Shown in pieces: positions 52,212 through 58,172 of a stretch of DNA of 63,628 bases (its first letter is position 1; every line of letters begins with the position of its first letter). This DNA comes from an uncultured Gammaproteobacteria bacterium (GTDB lineage Bacteria; Patescibacteriota; Microgenomatia; PFEM01; CAYPPS01). The stretch spans positions 1-63,628 of the forward strand of contig CAZZNI010000002.1 of NCBI GenBank assembly GCA_964655765.1, read 5' to 3'. The position numbers and the translations under genes were made by a program. A model generated the notes under the pieces. The model ran no database searches and was not told the DNA's origin. It saw nothing but the letters and a program-made list of their open reading frames with translations.

Positions 52212-52929
52212 AGGTGTGATAAAAATATCTTATGATGATTAGAAAAACTCCTTTAATTACAAATGAAATTTACCATGTCTATAATCGTAGTGTTGCCCAA
52301 CAGCCGATTTTTACTGGTGATAAAGAATGCCGACACTTTTTAGATTTAATAAATTTTTATCGATTTAAAGATAATTCTTTGCGTCTTTCTTATTTTTCGA
52401 GGCTTCCGGCAAAAAATAAAGAAAAATATTTGTCCTCTCAGTATTTATCGGAGGAACATGTTAAGGTACTCTCTTTTTGTATTATGCCTAATCATTATCA
52501 TTTTTTATTAGAGCAAAGTATTGATTTCGGGATAACTAATTTCTTGAAGTTAGTTCAGAATGGTTACGCTAAATATTTTAATATTAAATTGAAAAGATCC
52601 GGGGCTCTTTTTTTCCATTCTTTTAAAGCAGTTGGAGTGGAGAACGAAGAGCAGTTTTTGTACACAGCACGTTATATTCATTTAAACCCTCTCACTTCTT
52701 TCTTATTAAAAGCGCCTGAGGAATTGAAGACTTATGAATGGAGCTCTTATTTTGATTATATTTCCGATAACCCGCGCCCCTTTATAGATACAGAAAAATT
52801 GACTAGTTTGCTTAAAACAAAGGACGCCTTTGCACGATTCACATTGAATCAATTGGATTACCAAAGGAAACTAGAGCAAATTAAACACCTCTGTTTTGAA
52901 GATTAGCCTTCACACCTTCAGGGTGTGAT
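52201..52929. mobile_element. REP-associated tyrosine transposase element bounded by inverted palindromes
   Basis: Left TCACACC-CTGAA-GGTGTGA (~52201-52219) and right TCACACC-TTCAG-GGTGTGA (~52910-52928) are exact reverse complements. Confidence 0.8.
52232..52906 (+). CDS. REP-associated tyrosine (HUH Y1) transposase
   Basis: YHVYNRS, CIMPNHYHFLL (HUH), YIHLNP, YEWSSY. Confidence 0.9.
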   Translation: MMIRKTPLITNEIYHVYNRSVAQQPIFTGDKECRHFLDLINFYRFKDNSLRLSYFSRLPAKNKEKYLSSQYLSEEHVKVLSFCIMPNHYHFLLEQSIDFGITNFLKLVQNGYAKYFNIKLKRSGALFFHSFKAVGVENEEQFLYTARYIHLNPLTSFLLKAPEELKTYEWSSYFDYISDNPRPFIDTEKLTSLLKTKDAFARFTLNQLDYQRKLEQIKHLCFED

Positions 52930-52986: not shown

Positions 52987-53370
52987 GTGAAACGGTTTTT
53001 ATTTTATCTTAATCGCCTTCTGCCGCCGGTTTTATGGATGGCGGTTTTGTTTTATCTTTCTTCCATTTCCAATTTAAAAGCGGTAGCTGATCCCCAGCAA
53101 GATGAATTATTAAGAACCGTGGCTCATTTTCTTTTTTATACCGCAGGCTATGGATTATTTTTCCGAGCCTTCTTGAGCAAGAAAGCTAATTACATTTTAC
53201 CGTTATTACTGGTTTTACTTTATGCTCTTTTTGATGAAATTCACCAACACTTCGTTCCGGTACGAACTTTTCAATTACAGGATTTATTAGTTGACGGACT
53301 GGGAGCCTGTTTGGGATTAATAATTCTACAAGAGCAGCGATTGGTTAAACTAATTGGCCGACTGGGTTAA
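52987..53370 (+). CDS. VanZ family membrane protein
   Basis: WMAVLFYLSS, AHFLFY, YALFDEIHQHFVPVR, DLLVD. Confidence 0.9.
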   Translation: MKRFLFYLNRLLPPVLWMAVLFYLSSISNLKAVADPQQDELLRTVAHFLFYTAGYGLFFRAFLSKKANYILPLLLVLLYALFDEIHQHFVPVRTFQLQDLLVDGLGACLGLIILQEQRLVKLIGRLG

Positions 53371-53453
53371 TCATTAGGCTACTTCTTGACAGTCCTTTTT
53401 AAAAAGGTTATTGTTGCTTTAATGCCCTCCGACCTGGAGGGTTTTTAAGTCTT

Positions 53454-53627
53454 ATGAAGCAGTCGAAACAATTAACTTTCGGACCTAGATTATTGGACGA
53501 CCTGAGTCAGTCTTTAAAGACATTGGAGGGGTGGGGCAGCGTTGAAATTTTTGTTCAAAATAATAAAATTACTCAAATTTCGGCCCGTAAAATTAAGAAA
53601 ACCAACCATTCGGTAAAATCACTATAA
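53454..53627 (+). CDS. DUF2292/YezD-like small protein (57 aa, below the ORF-track cutoff)
   Basis: MKQSKQLTFGPRLLDDLSQSLKTLEGWGSVEIFVQNNKITQISARKIKKTNHSVKSL; the GSVEIxVQxxxITQI pattern; own TTGACA-17-TATTGT promoter at 53386-53414. Confidence 0.75.
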   Translation: MKQSKQLTFGPRLLDDLSQSLKTLEGWGSVEIFVQNNKITQISARKIKKTNHSVKSL

Positions 53628-53655
53628 TCCCCGGTAAATCGCTCCTTTGTTAATC

Positions 53656-53785
53656 TTGACAACGGGTAAAAATTACTATAATGTAATTGTAAAGCTAGAG
53701 TTTAATAACTTATAGTTTTATTACTATAAGACGCTGACCGCAAACGGAGGCACCTGAAAATTTTTTGGGTGTCTCTTTTGTTTTT
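53656..53785 (+). promoter_or_regulatory. Promoter plus overlapping hairpin/terminator leader
   Basis: TTGACA at 53656 with TATAAT/TAATGT at 53677-53684; GCTGACCG-CAAA-CGGAGGC (53733-53751) overlaps terminator GAGGCACC...GGTGTCTC-TTTTGTTTTT (53747-53785). Confidence 0.7.
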
Positions 53786-53943
53786 AAACTTTAACTTGCC
53801 TGTATGAGAATTAGTAATCTGCCCAAAACACCAGGCTTGTTTTCGGTTCCCACAGCCCAACGGCTATTTTTTGTCCCCTTTTTATCTTTTTCAGAACTTT
53901 TTTCAACTAGAATCTTTTCAAACGGAAAGGAGGTGAAGAAATA

Positions 53944-54486
53944 ATGAAGAAATTAATTGCTTTTTTAAGTGCTACTTTAATGTTGGTGGCAGTTGCCGCT
54001 CCGGCTTTAGCTGGAAGCCCTTGTGGGCAGTGCAAGCTGCCGAAACAAGGTATCTGTTGTCCAAGTGTTGAAATCTCAAACGACAACATGGCTGTTGTAA
54101 CAACTGGCGCTACATCTTACAGCAATAGTGGTGGTAATACTCAGACAAATACAGGTATGTCTTTGGGTAGCAGCAATAGTATTGTTGCTGGGGATTCTTA
54201 TTCGACAGCTCTATCCGCTAGCCAAGTTAACAGCAATACTAATACTGTTAGGACTTGGAACTCAGTCGGTGGAGTTGAGGTTAGGAATGGAAACGGAGCC
54301 TTTGTAGTGACGGATGCTTTTGCTGATTCTAACAGTGGCAGAAATAGCCAAACAAATACTGGTTTTAGTTGTGGTACTAACACAATTCGGACTGGTCTGT
54401 CTAATTCTTACTCTGATTCGCTTAGTATTGTTAATAGTAATACTAATACGGTCAGGAGTTGGGGGACTTGGGTAATGCCAAGATAA
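53944..54486 (+). CDS. Secreted Asn/Ser/Thr-rich two-repeat protein (candidate fibre subunit)
   Basis: Perfect SD, signal peptide, Cys-rich N-terminus, two ~65-aa repeats. Confidence 0.8.
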   Translation: MKKLIAFLSATLMLVAVAAPALAGSPCGQCKLPKQGICCPSVEISNDNMAVVTTGATSYSNSGGNTQTNTGMSLGSSNSIVAGDSYSTALSASQVNSNTNTVRTWNSVGGVEVRNGNGAFVVTDAFADSNSGRNSQTNTGFSCGTNTIRTGLSNSYSDSLSIVNSNTNTVRSWGTWVMPR

Positions 54487-54582: not shown

Positions 54583-56988
54583 TTGAAAGGTAGACTGTTA
54601 AAAAGATTACTTAGCTGTTATTTAAGCCTGTTTTTACTTCTCGGGCCTTTCTTTTCCGTTTTGCTTTATGCTCAAGAGAGCGAACCGTCGTCAGCAGAGG
54701 AAACAGTAGTTGTTGTGCAAGAGAGTTCGCCTGTCGAAGAAATAATAGAAACAGGCGATGCCGTTTCCGTTAGTGATGGCTTAACTGAAGTTAATCAGAA
54801 TGTTAATTTAATCGAAGAAACCGTAACTGATGAAACAACTGACGAGTGTAGTGATGATTGCCTTGTGGTTGAAATTGAAAACAGCAATCAGGCGACAGTT
54901 GCCGCTCAAGTTGAAGCCGAAGCCAACAGCGGTGACAACTCGATTGAAGTGGCGACCGATTCAGCCGGTTTAGAGCAGGCGGTTATTGACACCGGTCAGG
55001 CTTTAGCGGTTGCCAATAACGCGGTGGTGGTTAACACCAATCTTACCGGCAGTGATTTTGAATATTCTGTTTTAACTGATGAAGATTTATCAGGCGGAGC
55101 TGATTTTTCGACAAATTGGCAGGAATTTGAAGAAGAAGCTGGCAATCAGAATAGCAGTGCTCAAGTCGTGGTAGTGGCAAATGAAAATTTAGCCGATGTT
55201 AATTTGACCACCGTGGCAATTGCCAACAGCGGTAACAATTTAATCGATGGGGCGGCGATTGGCCAAATCGAAACCGGTGACAGTATTGCCCTGGCAAACA
55301 GTGTTGCCATTGTTAATACTAATTTCACCAACAGTGAATTTCTTTACACGGTTATTAATATTTTTGACACCCTTGAAGGTGACTTGGTTTTCCCCAGCCC
55401 TGACTATTTTTTAGCTGATAGCCAGGCGGTAGTTTTATCATCGGAGATTGAAATTATCAACAACAACAAGGCTGGGGTTGATAATCAAACAATCAGCAGC
55501 GCCGATAGTGGCGGCAATTTGATTACCGGTAATGGTCAATTAATAATCGAGACCGGTCAGGCAGTGTCAGTCAGTAATGTTTTTAACTGGATTAACCAGA
55601 ATTTTGTCGGTGTTTCTTTTTTTAGCCTGCTTTTTAATAATTTTGGAAACTGGGACGGGCAGCTGCTTAATTGGCAGGGCGCTGGCACTGTTACTAATTT
55701 AGGTCAAGGCAGTTACTTGTTCCAATTTGGTAGTCAACCGGATGAGTCGGTTGGTGTTGTTAACCAGAATGACTGCTGTTCTGCGCTAGCGGTAGAAAAT
55801 GAAAACCAAGCAACAGTTAATACCACTACTACCGCCTCGGCTGTCAGCGGTGATAATATTATTTCCGGTTTGGGTAACGGTGAGATTAAAACTGGCCAAG
55901 CCTTGGCGGTGGCTAATTCGACCAGTGTAGTTAACAGCAATTTTGTTAACAGCAAAGTCTTTTTTGGCATCTTTAACTTATTTGGGCTCTTTAAAGGCAA
56001 CCTGGTTTTTGCCTATCCTGATTTGGAAATTGAGATCACTGATAATCGGGATGAAGTTTTACCTGGTGAGGAATTGGCTTATGTCATCCATTATCGTAAC
56101 TCTGGCCAGGCACCAGCCAGAAATGTGACCATCCATCAACAAACAAACCCTCAGCTTAATTTGTTGTCTGTCAATAGTCCGCAGCCGGTTGTTAACGGCA
56201 ATGATTTTGACTGGTTTTTAGAAGAACTGGCCCCGGGTCAGGAAGGTAAAATTACCGTTGTGATGGAAGTGGCTGGCGAGGCGGTTGAAGATGATTTGGT
56301 CAGTCCGATTATTATCGAAAGCCAGGATCAAGACATTGACAGGGAAAATAATTTTGCCCAGGATTTAACCAGATTAGTTTTTCCTGATCCACAGCCAGCT
56401 TCGGTACCTGATAATGATCAAGACAATGACAACACCAGTAATGACAACAACAACCAGCCGGAATTAATAATTACTTCTTCTAATAATGTCGCTGATTTTA
56501 TTTATCCCGGTGACAGCTTGCTTTTTAAAGTGGTAGTTAAAAATCAGGGTGATGGTTTGGCGGAAGATGTGCTGTTATTTAACCAGCTTTACAACCAGAT
56601 CCCCGATCCTTTAGATGAAGCCGGGTTACCGATTGGCAACTTGGAACCAGGCGAGGAAAAAGTAATTGAATTTGGCTATCAGTTGCCGGCAGACCCCACT
56701 ATGGTTCACCCCGGCACTTACCGACTGGAATCGTGGCTGGAGGGTAGTAATGTTGCCGGTGATTTAGTTTTTTCGTCTGTCAGCAAAACTTATTTTCAAG
56801 TTAGACTAAAGAATCAGACGGCCGGATTAATTGAAACGGTTCAGGCGGCTGAAAACGAACAAGTTTTGGGAGCATCTCAAGCTTGTTCAGGTTCTGACAG
56901 TGAAGAAAAATTGCTGCCCTACTTATTGCTTTTTGCTATGTCTGGCCTTTGGCTGGTGGAAAAGGGTCGGCGGTTTTTAGTAAATTAG
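54583..56988 (+). CDS. Large surface protein: Asn-rich repeats, two DUF11/CARDB-like Ig domains, C-terminal TM
   Basis: Repeats NxNxAxV...[AS][ND]SGxN...IxTGxA; YVIHYRNSG and FKVVVKNQG domains; EQVLGAS, TM, KGRR. Confidence 0.8.
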   Translation: MKGRLLKRLLSCYLSLFLLLGPFFSVLLYAQESEPSSAEETVVVVQESSPVEEIIETGDAVSVSDGLTEVNQNVNLIEETVTDETTDECSDDCLVVEIENSNQATVAAQVEAEANSGDNSIEVATDSAGLEQAVIDTGQALAVANNAVVVNTNLTGSDFEYSVLTDEDLSGGADFSTNWQEFEEEAGNQNSSAQVVVVANENLADVNLTTVAIANSGNNLIDGAAIGQIETGDSIALANSVAIVNTNFTNSEFLYTVINIFDTLEGDLVFPSPDYFLADSQAVVLSSEIEIINNNKAGVDNQTISSADSGGNLITGNGQLIIETGQAVSVSNVFNWINQNFVGVSFFSLLFNNFGNWDGQLLNWQGAGTVTNLGQGSYLFQFGSQPDESVGVVNQNDCCSALAVENENQATVNTTTTASAVSGDNIISGLGNGEIKTGQALAVANSTSVVNSNFVNSKVFFGIFNLFGLFKGNLVFAYPDLEIEITDNRDEVLPGEELAYVIHYRNSGQAPARNVTIHQQTNPQLNLLSVNSPQPVVNGNDFDWFLEELAPGQEGKITVVMEVAGEAVEDDLVSPIIIESQDQDIDRENNFAQDLTRLVFPDPQPASVPDNDQDNDNTSNDNNNQPELIITSSNNVADFIYPGDSLLFKVVVKNQGDGLAEDVLLFNQLYNQIPDPLDEAGLPIGNLEPGEEKVIEFGYQLPADPTMVHPGTYRLESWLEGSNVAGDLVFSSVSKTYFQVRLKNQTAGLIETVQAAENEQVLGASQACSGSDSEEKLLPYLLLFAMSGLWLVEKGRRFLVN

Positions 56989-56990
56989 AA

Positions 56991-58172
56991 ATGAAAATGA
57001 AAAAAATAAAAAAACTTGGCCATCTTTTAGTATTACTGATTGTTATTTCCATTTTCTTTTTTTCCATCTATAAAATTGCCGCTTTAACCGGTTTGGGTCG
57101 ATTAAATGTTTTTGGCTTTAATTGTGATATTTGTAACGATTGTTTTTGCGATATTTGCGATGATTGCGGCCCATGTTGCCCAACACCAACCGAGGAACCG
57201 GAGCCAACTCCAACTGAAGAGTTATCTCCGTCACCAACGCCTATTGAAGAACTTTCGCCAACACCGACTTTAACGCCAATCCCAACTCCAACTTTGCCTT
57301 CCGAATCGGGTAATGGAGATAGTGCCAATGGTGATGTTGGTGGTGCTTCGGCGCCGGTTTGCGGTGAGGAAAAACCAGGAACGCCAATATTAACTTCTCT
57401 TGAAAAAATTAGTGGTGATCAGACCAAGTTAACTTGGACAACGGCCGACCGGGCAACTGGTTATTCTATCGCTTACGGTCTTTCGTCCGGCAATTATCAG
57501 TTTGGACTTGATGATACCGGTTTAGTTAATCAGTTTGCTATTGGCGGTTTGGATGCGGGGGTCAATTATTGTTTTGTCGTTCGGGCCAATAATAACTGCC
57601 AGCCGGGTGATTTTTCTAACGAGCTTTGCCAGAGTCAGCCTTCCGGTTGGGGAGGCGACCAGGTTTTGGGGGCATCAACTTTGGCAGCCACCGGCAGCAG
57701 CTTGAATGATTTTATTTTTAACTTAAATACAGTTGAGCAAAAAGCAGTTGATTGGTTTAATTTAACGGTCTTTGACCGGCAGCTGCCGGAAAGAATTGTT
57801 ATTGACGACCTAAAGATTGATTTACCGGTTAACTTAACTAAATTAAGAGATGGCCAGTGGCCGGTTGCCGCTTCTGAAGCTAATTTCTTACTTGGTTCAA
57901 CACTACCGGGCCAGTCTGGTAATGGCATTTTTTACGCTCATAATAAAAACAATTTGTTTGGTTCTTTAAATCAGATTAAACCAGGAAATGACATCACGGT
58001 TGTTACGCCGGAAACAAATTATACTTATGAGGTATTTGAAATATTAACGGCTGAAAGGGACGATTTGTCAATTTTAGAAAAAGGGGACGGTCAAATTATT
58101 ACTCTTTTTACCTGTACCGGCCCTAATGACAGCCAAAGACTGGTGGTTAAGGCTAAATTGAAACAGGGGTAA
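56991..58172 (+). CDS. Sortase fused to Cys-rich segment, PT linker and fibronectin type III domain
   Basis: TM, CDICNDCFCDICDDCGPCC, FN3 (LTW...Y...YCFVVRANNNC), VLGASTLAATG, then sortase FYAH / ITLFTC / QRLVVKA. Confidence 0.85.
   Translation: MKMKKIKKLGHLLVLLIVISIFFFSIYKIAALTGLGRLNVFGFNCDICNDCFCDICDDCGPCCPTPTEEPEPTPTEELSPSPTPIEELSPTPTLTPIPTPTLPSESGNGDSANGDVGGASAPVCGEEKPGTPILTSLEKISGDQTKLTWTTADRATGYSIAYGLSSGNYQFGLDDTGLVNQFAIGGLDAGVNYCFVVRANNNCQPGDFSNELCQSQPSGWGGDQVLGASTLAATGSSLNDFIFNLNTVEQKAVDWFNLTVFDRQLPERIVIDDLKIDLPVNLTKLRDGQWPVAASEANFLLGSTLPGQSGNGIFYAHNKNNLFGSLNQIKPGNDITVVTPETNYTYEVFEILTAERDDLSILEKGDGQIITLFTCTGPNDSQRLVVKAKLKQG

Follow-up and report, generated by a model that had tools for sequence, protein, structure and literature searches.

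This analysis concerns a candidate RNA switch in a stretch of 63,628 nucleotides (the window, a name used here for the whole stretch), which corresponds to positions 1 to 63,628 of contig CAZZNI010000002.1 in the GenBank assembly GCA_964655765.1, from a bacterium placed by GTDB in the Microgenomatia, within the Patescibacteriota. The element in question is a hairpin of 19 nucleotides (nt), named P1, which is located downstream of a small gene of the DUF2292 family, coding for a protein of 57 amino acids (aa), and upstream of several genes for surface proteins. P1 and an intrinsic terminator are both present in this leader and exclude each other; the pairs of P1 covary, and P1 is tied to the DUF2292 gene across genomes and phyla. 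Taken together, P1 and the terminator very probably constitute a conserved cis-acting attenuator, the default state of which is termination. The association of gene and hairpin makes it moderately probable, in addition, that the small protein binds P1 and prevents termination. The components of the switch are the following:

53454..53627, + strand: gene of the 57-aa DUF2292-family protein, candidate trans-acting factor (open reading frame (ORF) and Pfam match)
53656..53682, + strand: promoter-like site of the leader, TTGACA, 15 nt, TATAAT (read from the sequence)
53709..53730, + strand: P0 hairpin, CUUAUAGU-UUUAUU-ACUAUAAG, immediately 5' of P1 (centroid fold)
53733..53751, + strand: P1 hairpin, GCU-GA-CCG-CAAA-CGG-A-GGC, candidate antiterminator and protein-binding site (folding, model R1)
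53747..53786, + strand: intrinsic terminator, stem end 53776, U tract 53777-53786 (terminator scan, folding)

The P1 hairpin and the terminator that it overlaps

P1 (GCUGACCG-CAAA-CGGAGGC) folds alone with -7.0 kcal/mol, a value equalled by 9 of 200 shuffles, and is found once in the source genome (G000; 705 kb in 35 contigs, 96% complete), where it scores 38.5 bits with model R1 and the next best match 13.8 bits. Among 61 related genomes, 21 encode the small protein and 22 carry P1, the latter set including all 21. The small gene was recovered by tblastn at 20 loci, and at 19 of these it is followed after 14-353 nt, on its own strand, by a near-identical 19-mer. The pairs of P1 are standard in 114 of 114 cells (19 sequences), with both-sided changes in three pairs; they also form in 270 of 270 cells of an alignment of 45 distinct sequences that were matched by model R1 and fitted to it. 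This larger alignment contains 12 compensatory cells (eight G-C to A-U, and two plus two C-G to U-A) and 18 more in which U-G becomes C-G or U-A, while just 21-52% of cells pair in slid control alignments. Positions A16, C6, G8, C13, and G15 are invariant among the 45 sequences, G4 is kept in 43 and A5 in 40, and the tetraloop is CAAA in 27. The neighboring P0 hairpin is found in a subset of relatives (G001, G041, and others), with changes that preserve its pairing. A role for the GGAGG of P1 as a Shine-Dalgarno mimic binding the 16S ribosomal RNA was considered and rejected, because 6 of the 45 sequences read GGAAG, a change which preserves the U3-A17 pair. No Rfam family matches the motif, a check that had been proposed when this DNA was first read: within the window, Rfam 15 gave no match at P1 at E<=10 except one of 12.5 bits (cut-off, 440 bits), and neither 11 loci of the class nor 15 canonical DUF2292 loci had one at E<=1; a motif this short may score below the level that is listed.

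The terminator stem (53746/7-53776, followed by TTTGTTTTT) reaches -17.3 kcal/mol with a z of -4.46, and has the features of an intrinsic terminator. GGAGGC is common to the 3' arm of P1 and the 5' arm of the terminator, which overlaps P1 positions 15-19 in the window. An earlier sequence-only reading of this DNA had regarded the two structures as mutually exclusive, and the arrangement is preserved far beyond the window: in 39 of 45 distinct instances, the first position of the terminator's 5' arm falls within P1 positions 13-18, and the overlap is found at P1 positions 13-19 in 68 of 75 loci located by exact 19-mer. It is this conservation in relatives, and not the statistics of the window, which raises the combination of P1 and terminator above chance. 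The terminators range from -9 to -44 kcal/mol, compared with about -7 for P1, and are of two types: those in which GGC alone is shared, and those in which the whole CGGAGGC is paired with GCCUCCG just before the U tract. Exactly one terminator is present in 24 of 34 leaders. At several loci, only 30-60 nt lie between the terminator and the following Shine-Dalgarno, too short a gap for another promoter, and the gene behind it must rely on read-through. As a general explanation, ribosome-mediated attenuation by the small ORF was rejected, given that the protein sequence is conserved; it is also disfavored by the distance of 50-370 nt between the stop of the small gene and the switch, with a promoter between, in most loci. 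A different layout is seen at loci L042 (G017) and L044 (G010), in which P1 reads GCUGGCCG..CGGAAGC, GCAAACGGA pairs with a distant UCCGUUUGC, and the terminator lies about 100 nt further on; this arrangement, seen in family f10, may be a three-state version of the switch.

The leader that carries both structures begins behind a promoter-like site whose two hexamers, TTGACA (53656-61) and TATAAT (53677-82), are perfect. Its spacer has 15 nt and the site is absent from the promoter scan list for that reason, since the scan covers spacers of 16-18 nt. The leader up to the ATG at 53944 measures about 255 nt, which agrees with the near-consensus promoter and the leader of about 250 nt described at first reading, and the promoter-like element is kept in an alignment of five order-level leaders. 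The -10 region (53673-53687, AUUACUAUAAUG) and the 3' arm of P0 (53720-53730, AUUACUAUAAGA) are near-repeats, and the copy in P0 could act as an alternative -10 box, which would start the RNA right at P1.

Association of the hairpin with DUF2292 genes

Within the class, the protein (profile A2) is found in 47 of 151 genomes and P1 in 49, including all 47, and 102 genomes have neither; the sets of 47 and 49 include one unpublished genome, G231, on which no claim depends. P1 occurs in only 2 of the 104 class genomes without the protein, G036 and G223. The former is 82% complete, and in the latter the contig ends 985 nt upstream of P1, in a family where the small gene sits 1-1.8 kb upstream of P1; both cases can be explained by assembly gaps. 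Thirty-three of the 47 protein-bearing genomes were not used in building model R1, and in 30 of these P1 is located 11-467 nt downstream of the gene on the same strand. The remaining three, all from the family of G223, have a membrane protein and a DUF4352-type gene before P1, which lies 1.0-1.8 kb downstream. Two or three copies of P1 are present in 16 genomes, all of them protein-bearing; where a copy is not linked to the gene, what follows is a secreted protein, a nucleotide-sugar dehydrogenase-like gene, or a PIG-L-like deacetylase gene. In a phylum-wide sample of 151 genomes, the protein profile had matches in two, which belong to the class of the window.

An exact search for the 19-mer in contigs of one genome per species yielded 96 stretches, 80 of which were examined. 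A DUF2292-like ORF ends 12-371 nt upstream, on the same strand, in 65 of these 80 listed loci (96 in total). Five more are GC-rich chance matches in unrelated genomes, without the gene, approximately the number expected for a 19-mer, and the other ten comprise three loci less than 150 nt from the edge of their sequence, three with the gene 1.5-6.5 kb away, and four without the gene in their sequence. According to heuristic gene finding, the downstream gene begins with a signal peptide in 60 of 61 cases among the non-chance loci. Most genes behind P1 belong to a family of about 410-440 aa that lacks a Pfam or NCBIfam model, and two other targets are TasA/camelysin-like. Roughly half of the record titles of loci L071-L150 from this search read 'uncultured Gammaproteobacteria bacterium', and single ones name Acidiferrales and Bathyarchaeia. 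These titles look unreliable, or the contigs mis-binned, and they carry no weight here; the loci share the same AT-rich module.

The sequence-only reading had suggested a search for the motif downstream of DUF2292 genes and for its overlap with terminators. The expected link is found not only in the class but also beside canonical DUF2292 genes in Pseudomonadota and in metagenomes. The Pseudomonadota genomes were reached through chance matches of the 19-mer; PF10055 has matches in three of 61 genomes from a single order and in 15 of 301 from the whole phylum, giving 18 loci. The hairpin design found downstream consists of an outer stem, GA on the 5' side, an inner C(C/U)GG, a loop of 4 nt, CC(G/A)G, A on the 3' side, and the outer stem again, for instance GCU-GA-CCGG-ACCG-CCGG-A-AGC. 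A descriptor of this design, written after the first four Pseudomonadota loci, matches within 250 nt downstream of the gene in 10 of the 18 loci (7 of the 14 that were fetched afterwards) and gives no match in 106,568 other positions. The same descriptor, unchanged and with the test fixed in advance, was then applied to 80 metagenome loci obtained with the canonical protein profile, 78 of which were usable. It matches within 250 nt downstream in 20 of the 78; four further matches all lie beside the gene on its strand, and the opposite strand has none (374,731 positions).

Because model R1 detects the proteobacterial hairpins weakly (best 16.1 bits), a second model, R2, was built from 35 hairpins. 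It has 58 compensatory cells in the outer stem, where the descriptor itself required pairing. At E<=0.01, 45 of 98 loci have an R2 match between -10 and +300 nt from the stop, and 15 of these were not used to train the model; of the other loci, six have same-strand matches only inside or upstream of the gene, two have matches elsewhere, and 45 have none, some of the last carrying variants with CCAG/CUGG inner stems or 5-bp stems. Seven of eight R2 matches in five whole genomes adjoin a DUF2292 gene, and among the 61 genomes of the order matches of at least 28 bits are confined to the three genomes with DUF2292, with two weak ones elsewhere (25.8 and 24.5 bits). One 39.8-bit copy, absent from the training set, is located in the leader of a cysT-like sulfate permease gene, which is preceded by a CysB-like regulator gene; the DUF2292 gene is 5 kb away.

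The genes behind the proteobacterial hairpins are sbp-like, cysT-like, and porin-like. An overlapping terminator is not evident at these hairpins. The 3' outer arm is able to pair with the Shine-Dalgarno of the next gene in 13 of 37 proteobacterial cases (e.g., AAGCUCC-GACA-GGAGC), for which shuffle controls of single cases give moderate support only. Four loci (L177, L184, L172, and L173) carry two tandem hairpins, the first with a UA/C loop (GCC-UA-CCGG-NNNN-CCGG-C-GGC) and the second of the GA/A type.

As for the protein, the unannotated gene that had been noticed at first reading is indeed present at 53454..53627, and its product belongs to Pfam DUF2292 (PF10055; 24.7 bits, cut-off 22, E 1.8e-5). 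Pfam finds this domain alone in it, with no CAT, PRD, or ANTAR domain, and the score against the OscA equivalog (NCBIfam NF033785) is 16.7 bits, compared with a cut-off of 85, which places the protein outside that equivalog. The window family and canonical DUF2292 are nonetheless joined by hhalign (profile A2 vs A5) with a probability of 98% and an E of 2.8e-13. They have in common the core G-[ST]-[VL]-E-[IL]...V.QI followed by basic residues, a core overlapped by the invariant residues of the window family (G28, S29, E31, Q41, I42, R45, I47, and K49). The protein has 2351 homologues at E<=1e-3, most with a precomputed PF10055 assignment and named at the source 'DUF2292 domain-containing' or 'YezD family'; the source organisms named include Gottesmanbacteria, Curtissbacteria, Microgenomates group, and Patescibacteria. 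The gene is single-copy in G000. The AlphaFold model comprises a helix and a beta hairpin (pLDDT 82). Searching PDB sequences with a profile of the small protein gave coiled-coil noise only, the ESM Atlas only a DUF2292 cluster (at 0.83), and tblastn against plasmids no match. The 33 longer forms of DUF2292 are mostly apparent read-through fusions with sbp or a porin and are too thin to use. There is also a single protein of 283 aa (P0125) with PAS domains followed by DUF2292; if this fusion is real, DUF2292 would be its output domain. More distant members have, encoded beside the small gene, a single-pass membrane protein with an extracellular DUF4352-like domain. This neighbor is upstream of the small gene in loci L008, L009, L011, L012, L016, L017, L018, and L021, and occupies 1505-2344 in L168; one of these proteins scores 25.5 bits on PF11611 (cut-off, 25.9). 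The membrane protein is a candidate sensor or partner.

Proposed mechanism and competing explanations

In the proposed mechanism, the polymerase would start near 53656-53682 and transcribe P1 (53733-53751) first. By default, the much more stable terminator would displace the 5' arm of P1 and take the shared GGAGGC, and transcription would stop before the surface-protein genes. The 57-aa protein would recognize the CCG/CGG stem together with the invariant GA/A internal loop and hold P1; the held hairpin would block the base of the terminator, with read-through into the three genes behind it, which code for a 180-aa secreted protein, a DUF11 protein, and a sortase. We infer both the binding of P1 by the protein and the direction of its effect, read-through rather than termination. 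The sole constant partner of the hairpin is the DUF2292 gene, over two phyla, with differing targets and outputs and at distances from 11 nt to 5 kb; the simplest account is that the small protein holds the hairpin. A broader proposal, which we judge to be evenly poised between right and wrong, is that the DUF2292/YezD/OscA proteins are widespread, unrecognized RNA-binding regulators of about 60 aa, whose site is a GA/A-loop hairpin with a CCG(G)/(C)CGG stem and whose outputs differ by lineage. The output would be a terminator in Microgenomates-type bacteria, for surface and envelope genes, and a Shine-Dalgarno sequestor in Pseudomonadota, for sulfate uptake.

Several observations weigh against the proposed mechanism. 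The window contains two terminator-like sites, compared with 2.0 +/- 1.5 in shuffles, a count not above chance. The second hairpin of the leader, at 53854-53872, is not maskable by P1, and is also present, and stronger, in some order-level relatives. P1 lacks an overlapping terminator in family f10 (G010, G017). The co-occurrence within the class overstates independence, because P1 is linked to the gene and the genomes are related to each other. Regarding the canonical loci, 45 of 98 have no hairpin at E<=0.01, among them a group of near-identical oscA-sbp loci (L182, L183, and the L234-L265 group) with a spacer of only about 50 nt that holds no hairpin at all; this lineage has thus lost or replaced the element. 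The small protein had been described at first reading as basic, which is true of the window protein (isoelectric point (pI) 10.2) and fails for 4 of 20 relatives, which are acidic (pI 5.7-6.4). Finally, the predicted fold has no match in the PDB by Foldseek at E<=0.001, and hence no known RNA-binding fold, and the best Z in a wide structure search (VIA) was 2.8.

Among the other explanations, it is rather unlikely that P1 is recognized by a different cell factor (for example a ribonuclease, a Nus factor, or a ribosomal protein), with DUF2292 travelling along as a DNA-binding promoter regulator or an envelope helper. Such a passenger role would suit a small protein in which no RNA-binding fold or motif is recognized, and gene and motif are physically linked and therefore inherited together. 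However, the pairing persists across phyla though all other neighbors have been replaced, the interval that separates gene and hairpin ranges from 11 nt to 5 kb and can include unrelated genes, unlinked copies of the motif exist only where the gene is present, and no further conserved non-coding element is seen across these loci. An unlikely variant keeps the binding of P1 by the protein and reverses or displaces its effect, with promotion of termination (as by TRAP or PyrR) or an action on RNA stability or translation. The data on gene-hairpin association fit this variant equally. In Pseudomonadota, moreover, an overlapping terminator is not evident, and 13 of 37 cases seem to have a translational output. 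In some loci P1 is only 11-23 nt past the stop of the small gene, so that there the terminator also ends the small gene's own transcript. Its weak side is energetic: P1 has -7 kcal/mol and the terminators -15 to -44, and because P1 is so much weaker, termination is the default and needs no help. The conservation of both P1 arms and of the internal loop as a folded hairpin likewise fits stabilization of P1.

A tiny riboswitch for a metabolite or an ion, its aptamer lying within the terminator and the DUF2292 gene being a passenger or part of the pathway, is quite unlikely. Little space for a binding pocket remains in a hairpin of 19 nt whose internal loop is 2x1 and whose tetraloop varies; the downstream genes are wholly different between phyla (surface proteins vs sulfate uptake), DUF2292 alone being a constant neighbor; and P1 is found in just 2 of 104 genomes without the gene and matches no Rfam family. 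In favor of a riboswitch are a geometry which is that of an ON-switch, a small hairpin sharing an arm of the terminator, a stem sequence highly conserved beyond the needs of pairing, and expression platforms that differ between phyla, as is typical of riboswitches. Least probable is that P1 and the terminator form a free-standing, trans-acting small RNA of about 45-90 nt and not a leader. The unit does have its own promoter-like site, only about 6-8 nt before P1 in some loci, and a strong terminator; yet the motif always points to a downstream gene on the same strand, and the gap of 30-60 nt between terminator and Shine-Dalgarno leaves that gene, in several loci, dependent on read-through.

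Surroundings of the switch and comparison with known systems

The other features around the switch are the following:

52987-53370, + strand: VanZ-like gene (ORF list, Pfam)
53386..53414, + strand: promoter-like site of the small gene, TTGACA, 17 nt, TATTGT (promoter scan)
53424..53446, + strand: hairpin GCCCUCC-GACCU-GGAGGGU and U tract, directly before the AUG of the small gene (-15.8 kcal/mol, z -3.66)
53854..53872, + strand: weak second hairpin, AGCC-CAAC-GGCU, and T tract (terminator survey of leaders)
53926..53936, + strand: extended Shine-Dalgarno AAAGGAGGUGA of the first regulated gene (read from the sequence)
53944..54486, + strand: 180-aa secreted repeat protein, first gene behind the switch (ORF; without Pfam family)
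54583..56988, + strand: 801-aa DUF11 surface protein (ORF and Pfam)
56949..58172, + strand: sortase with fn3 domain (ORF and Pfam)

The hairpin before the small gene had been read as a relative of P1. The hairpin and its T tract exist at 53424-53446; the relationship to P1 is unsupported, for the corresponding hairpin in relatives reads GCCCAUC..GAUGGG-UUUU (loci L003-L007, L010, L013, and L015). A P1-like site in the small gene's own leader was accordingly rejected, the GACC..GGAGG likeness not being kept in other loci. A hairpin with a U tract is found just before the start of the small gene in 9 of 20 loci, and a CTTGACA promoter-like site also precedes it in several relatives. In the window, its 3' arm holds the only Shine-Dalgarno-like GGAGG before the small gene, which would thus be buried in a hairpin at what seems to be the start of that gene's mRNA. 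The hairpin could be an attenuator in the 5' untranslated region or a translational brake on the small gene, and/or the terminator of the VanZ gene. The idea that CTGCCC generally follows promoters was also rejected, as none of 104 CTTGACA sites in G000 is followed by it.

An IS200/Y1-transposase-like gene (52232-52906; 32.2 bits, PF01797) is located between the upstream surface-protein genes and the VanZ gene. The extended Shine-Dalgarno AAAGGAGGTGA has 12 copies in G000, 11 of them preceding a start codon; the genes behind these 11 code mostly for small secreted or membrane proteins, together with an Hsp20-like gene and a pilin-like gene. The stretch is present in seven DNA sequencing runs, all of them sludge metagenomes, with no RNA run among those listed.

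If the proposed control is true, it would have several implications. A family hitherto without a molecular function would receive one, namely RNA-hairpin binding with control of termination or translation, and a new minimal protein family would join the few known antiterminator proteins. It would also be, within the literature searched, the first candidate gene switch for the ultrasmall Patescibacteria, in control of secreted and sortase-linked surface proteins, which episymbionts of this kind are thought to deploy on their hosts. The protein and the RNA site add up to less than 250 nt, a possible compact expression tool. The literature searched contained no description of the motif, including the main text of PMC5737381, whose supplements may list such a motif. 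No study joining Patescibacteria and RNA motifs of this kind surfaced in it, and DUF2292 is named in just two papers there, neither with functional work.

The system proposed here is a new protein family and a new RNA motif for a known kind of mechanism. In the BglG/SacY/LicT systems, a weak hairpin with imperfect pairing and internal loops, the ribonucleic antiterminator (RAT), overlaps the 5' arm of a terminator; termination is the default and the bound protein gives read-through. P1 has the same geometry, overlapping the 5' arm of the terminator in the window as well as in the relatives (39/45 and 68/75). Unlike those regulators, the window protein has 57 aa and no CAT/PRD or sensor domain, P1 has 19 nt and a different sequence, and no sugar phosphotransferase system genes are near the switch. 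The hydroxymethylpyrimidine pyrophosphate (HMP-PP) riboswitch, or thiS motif, has an aptamer embedded in a terminator, senses a metabolite, and sits before thiamin genes. It resembles P1 in being a very small hairpin joined to a terminator stem, whereas the ligand proposed for P1 is a protein. Phage lambda N and boxB also combine a small protein with a short hairpin of the nascent RNA, with termination as the target. N makes the polymerase resistant to many terminators via Nus factors, and boxB does not overlap a terminator; in contrast, the overlap of P1 with the terminator is conserved, and a single terminator is present in most leaders (24/34). The ANTAR regulators (EutV, AmiR, and NasR; PMC3369931 and PMC8934654) stabilize dual hexaloop hairpins that exclude the terminator, by means of an ANTAR domain within a multi-domain protein. 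P1 differs from these in being one hairpin with a tetraloop, and its candidate partner is a stand-alone protein of 57 aa which lacks the ANTAR domain. OscA appears, in a passage of PMC2996968 that cites Viti 2009, as a small protein without an assigned function, in one transcription unit with sbp. The window protein is homologous to OscA/YezD, and many oscA-type genes carry the same hairpin design downstream; unlike OscA, its presumed targets are surface proteins and not sulfate uptake, the inner stem of its hairpin has 3 bp, and the hairpin is fused to a terminator.

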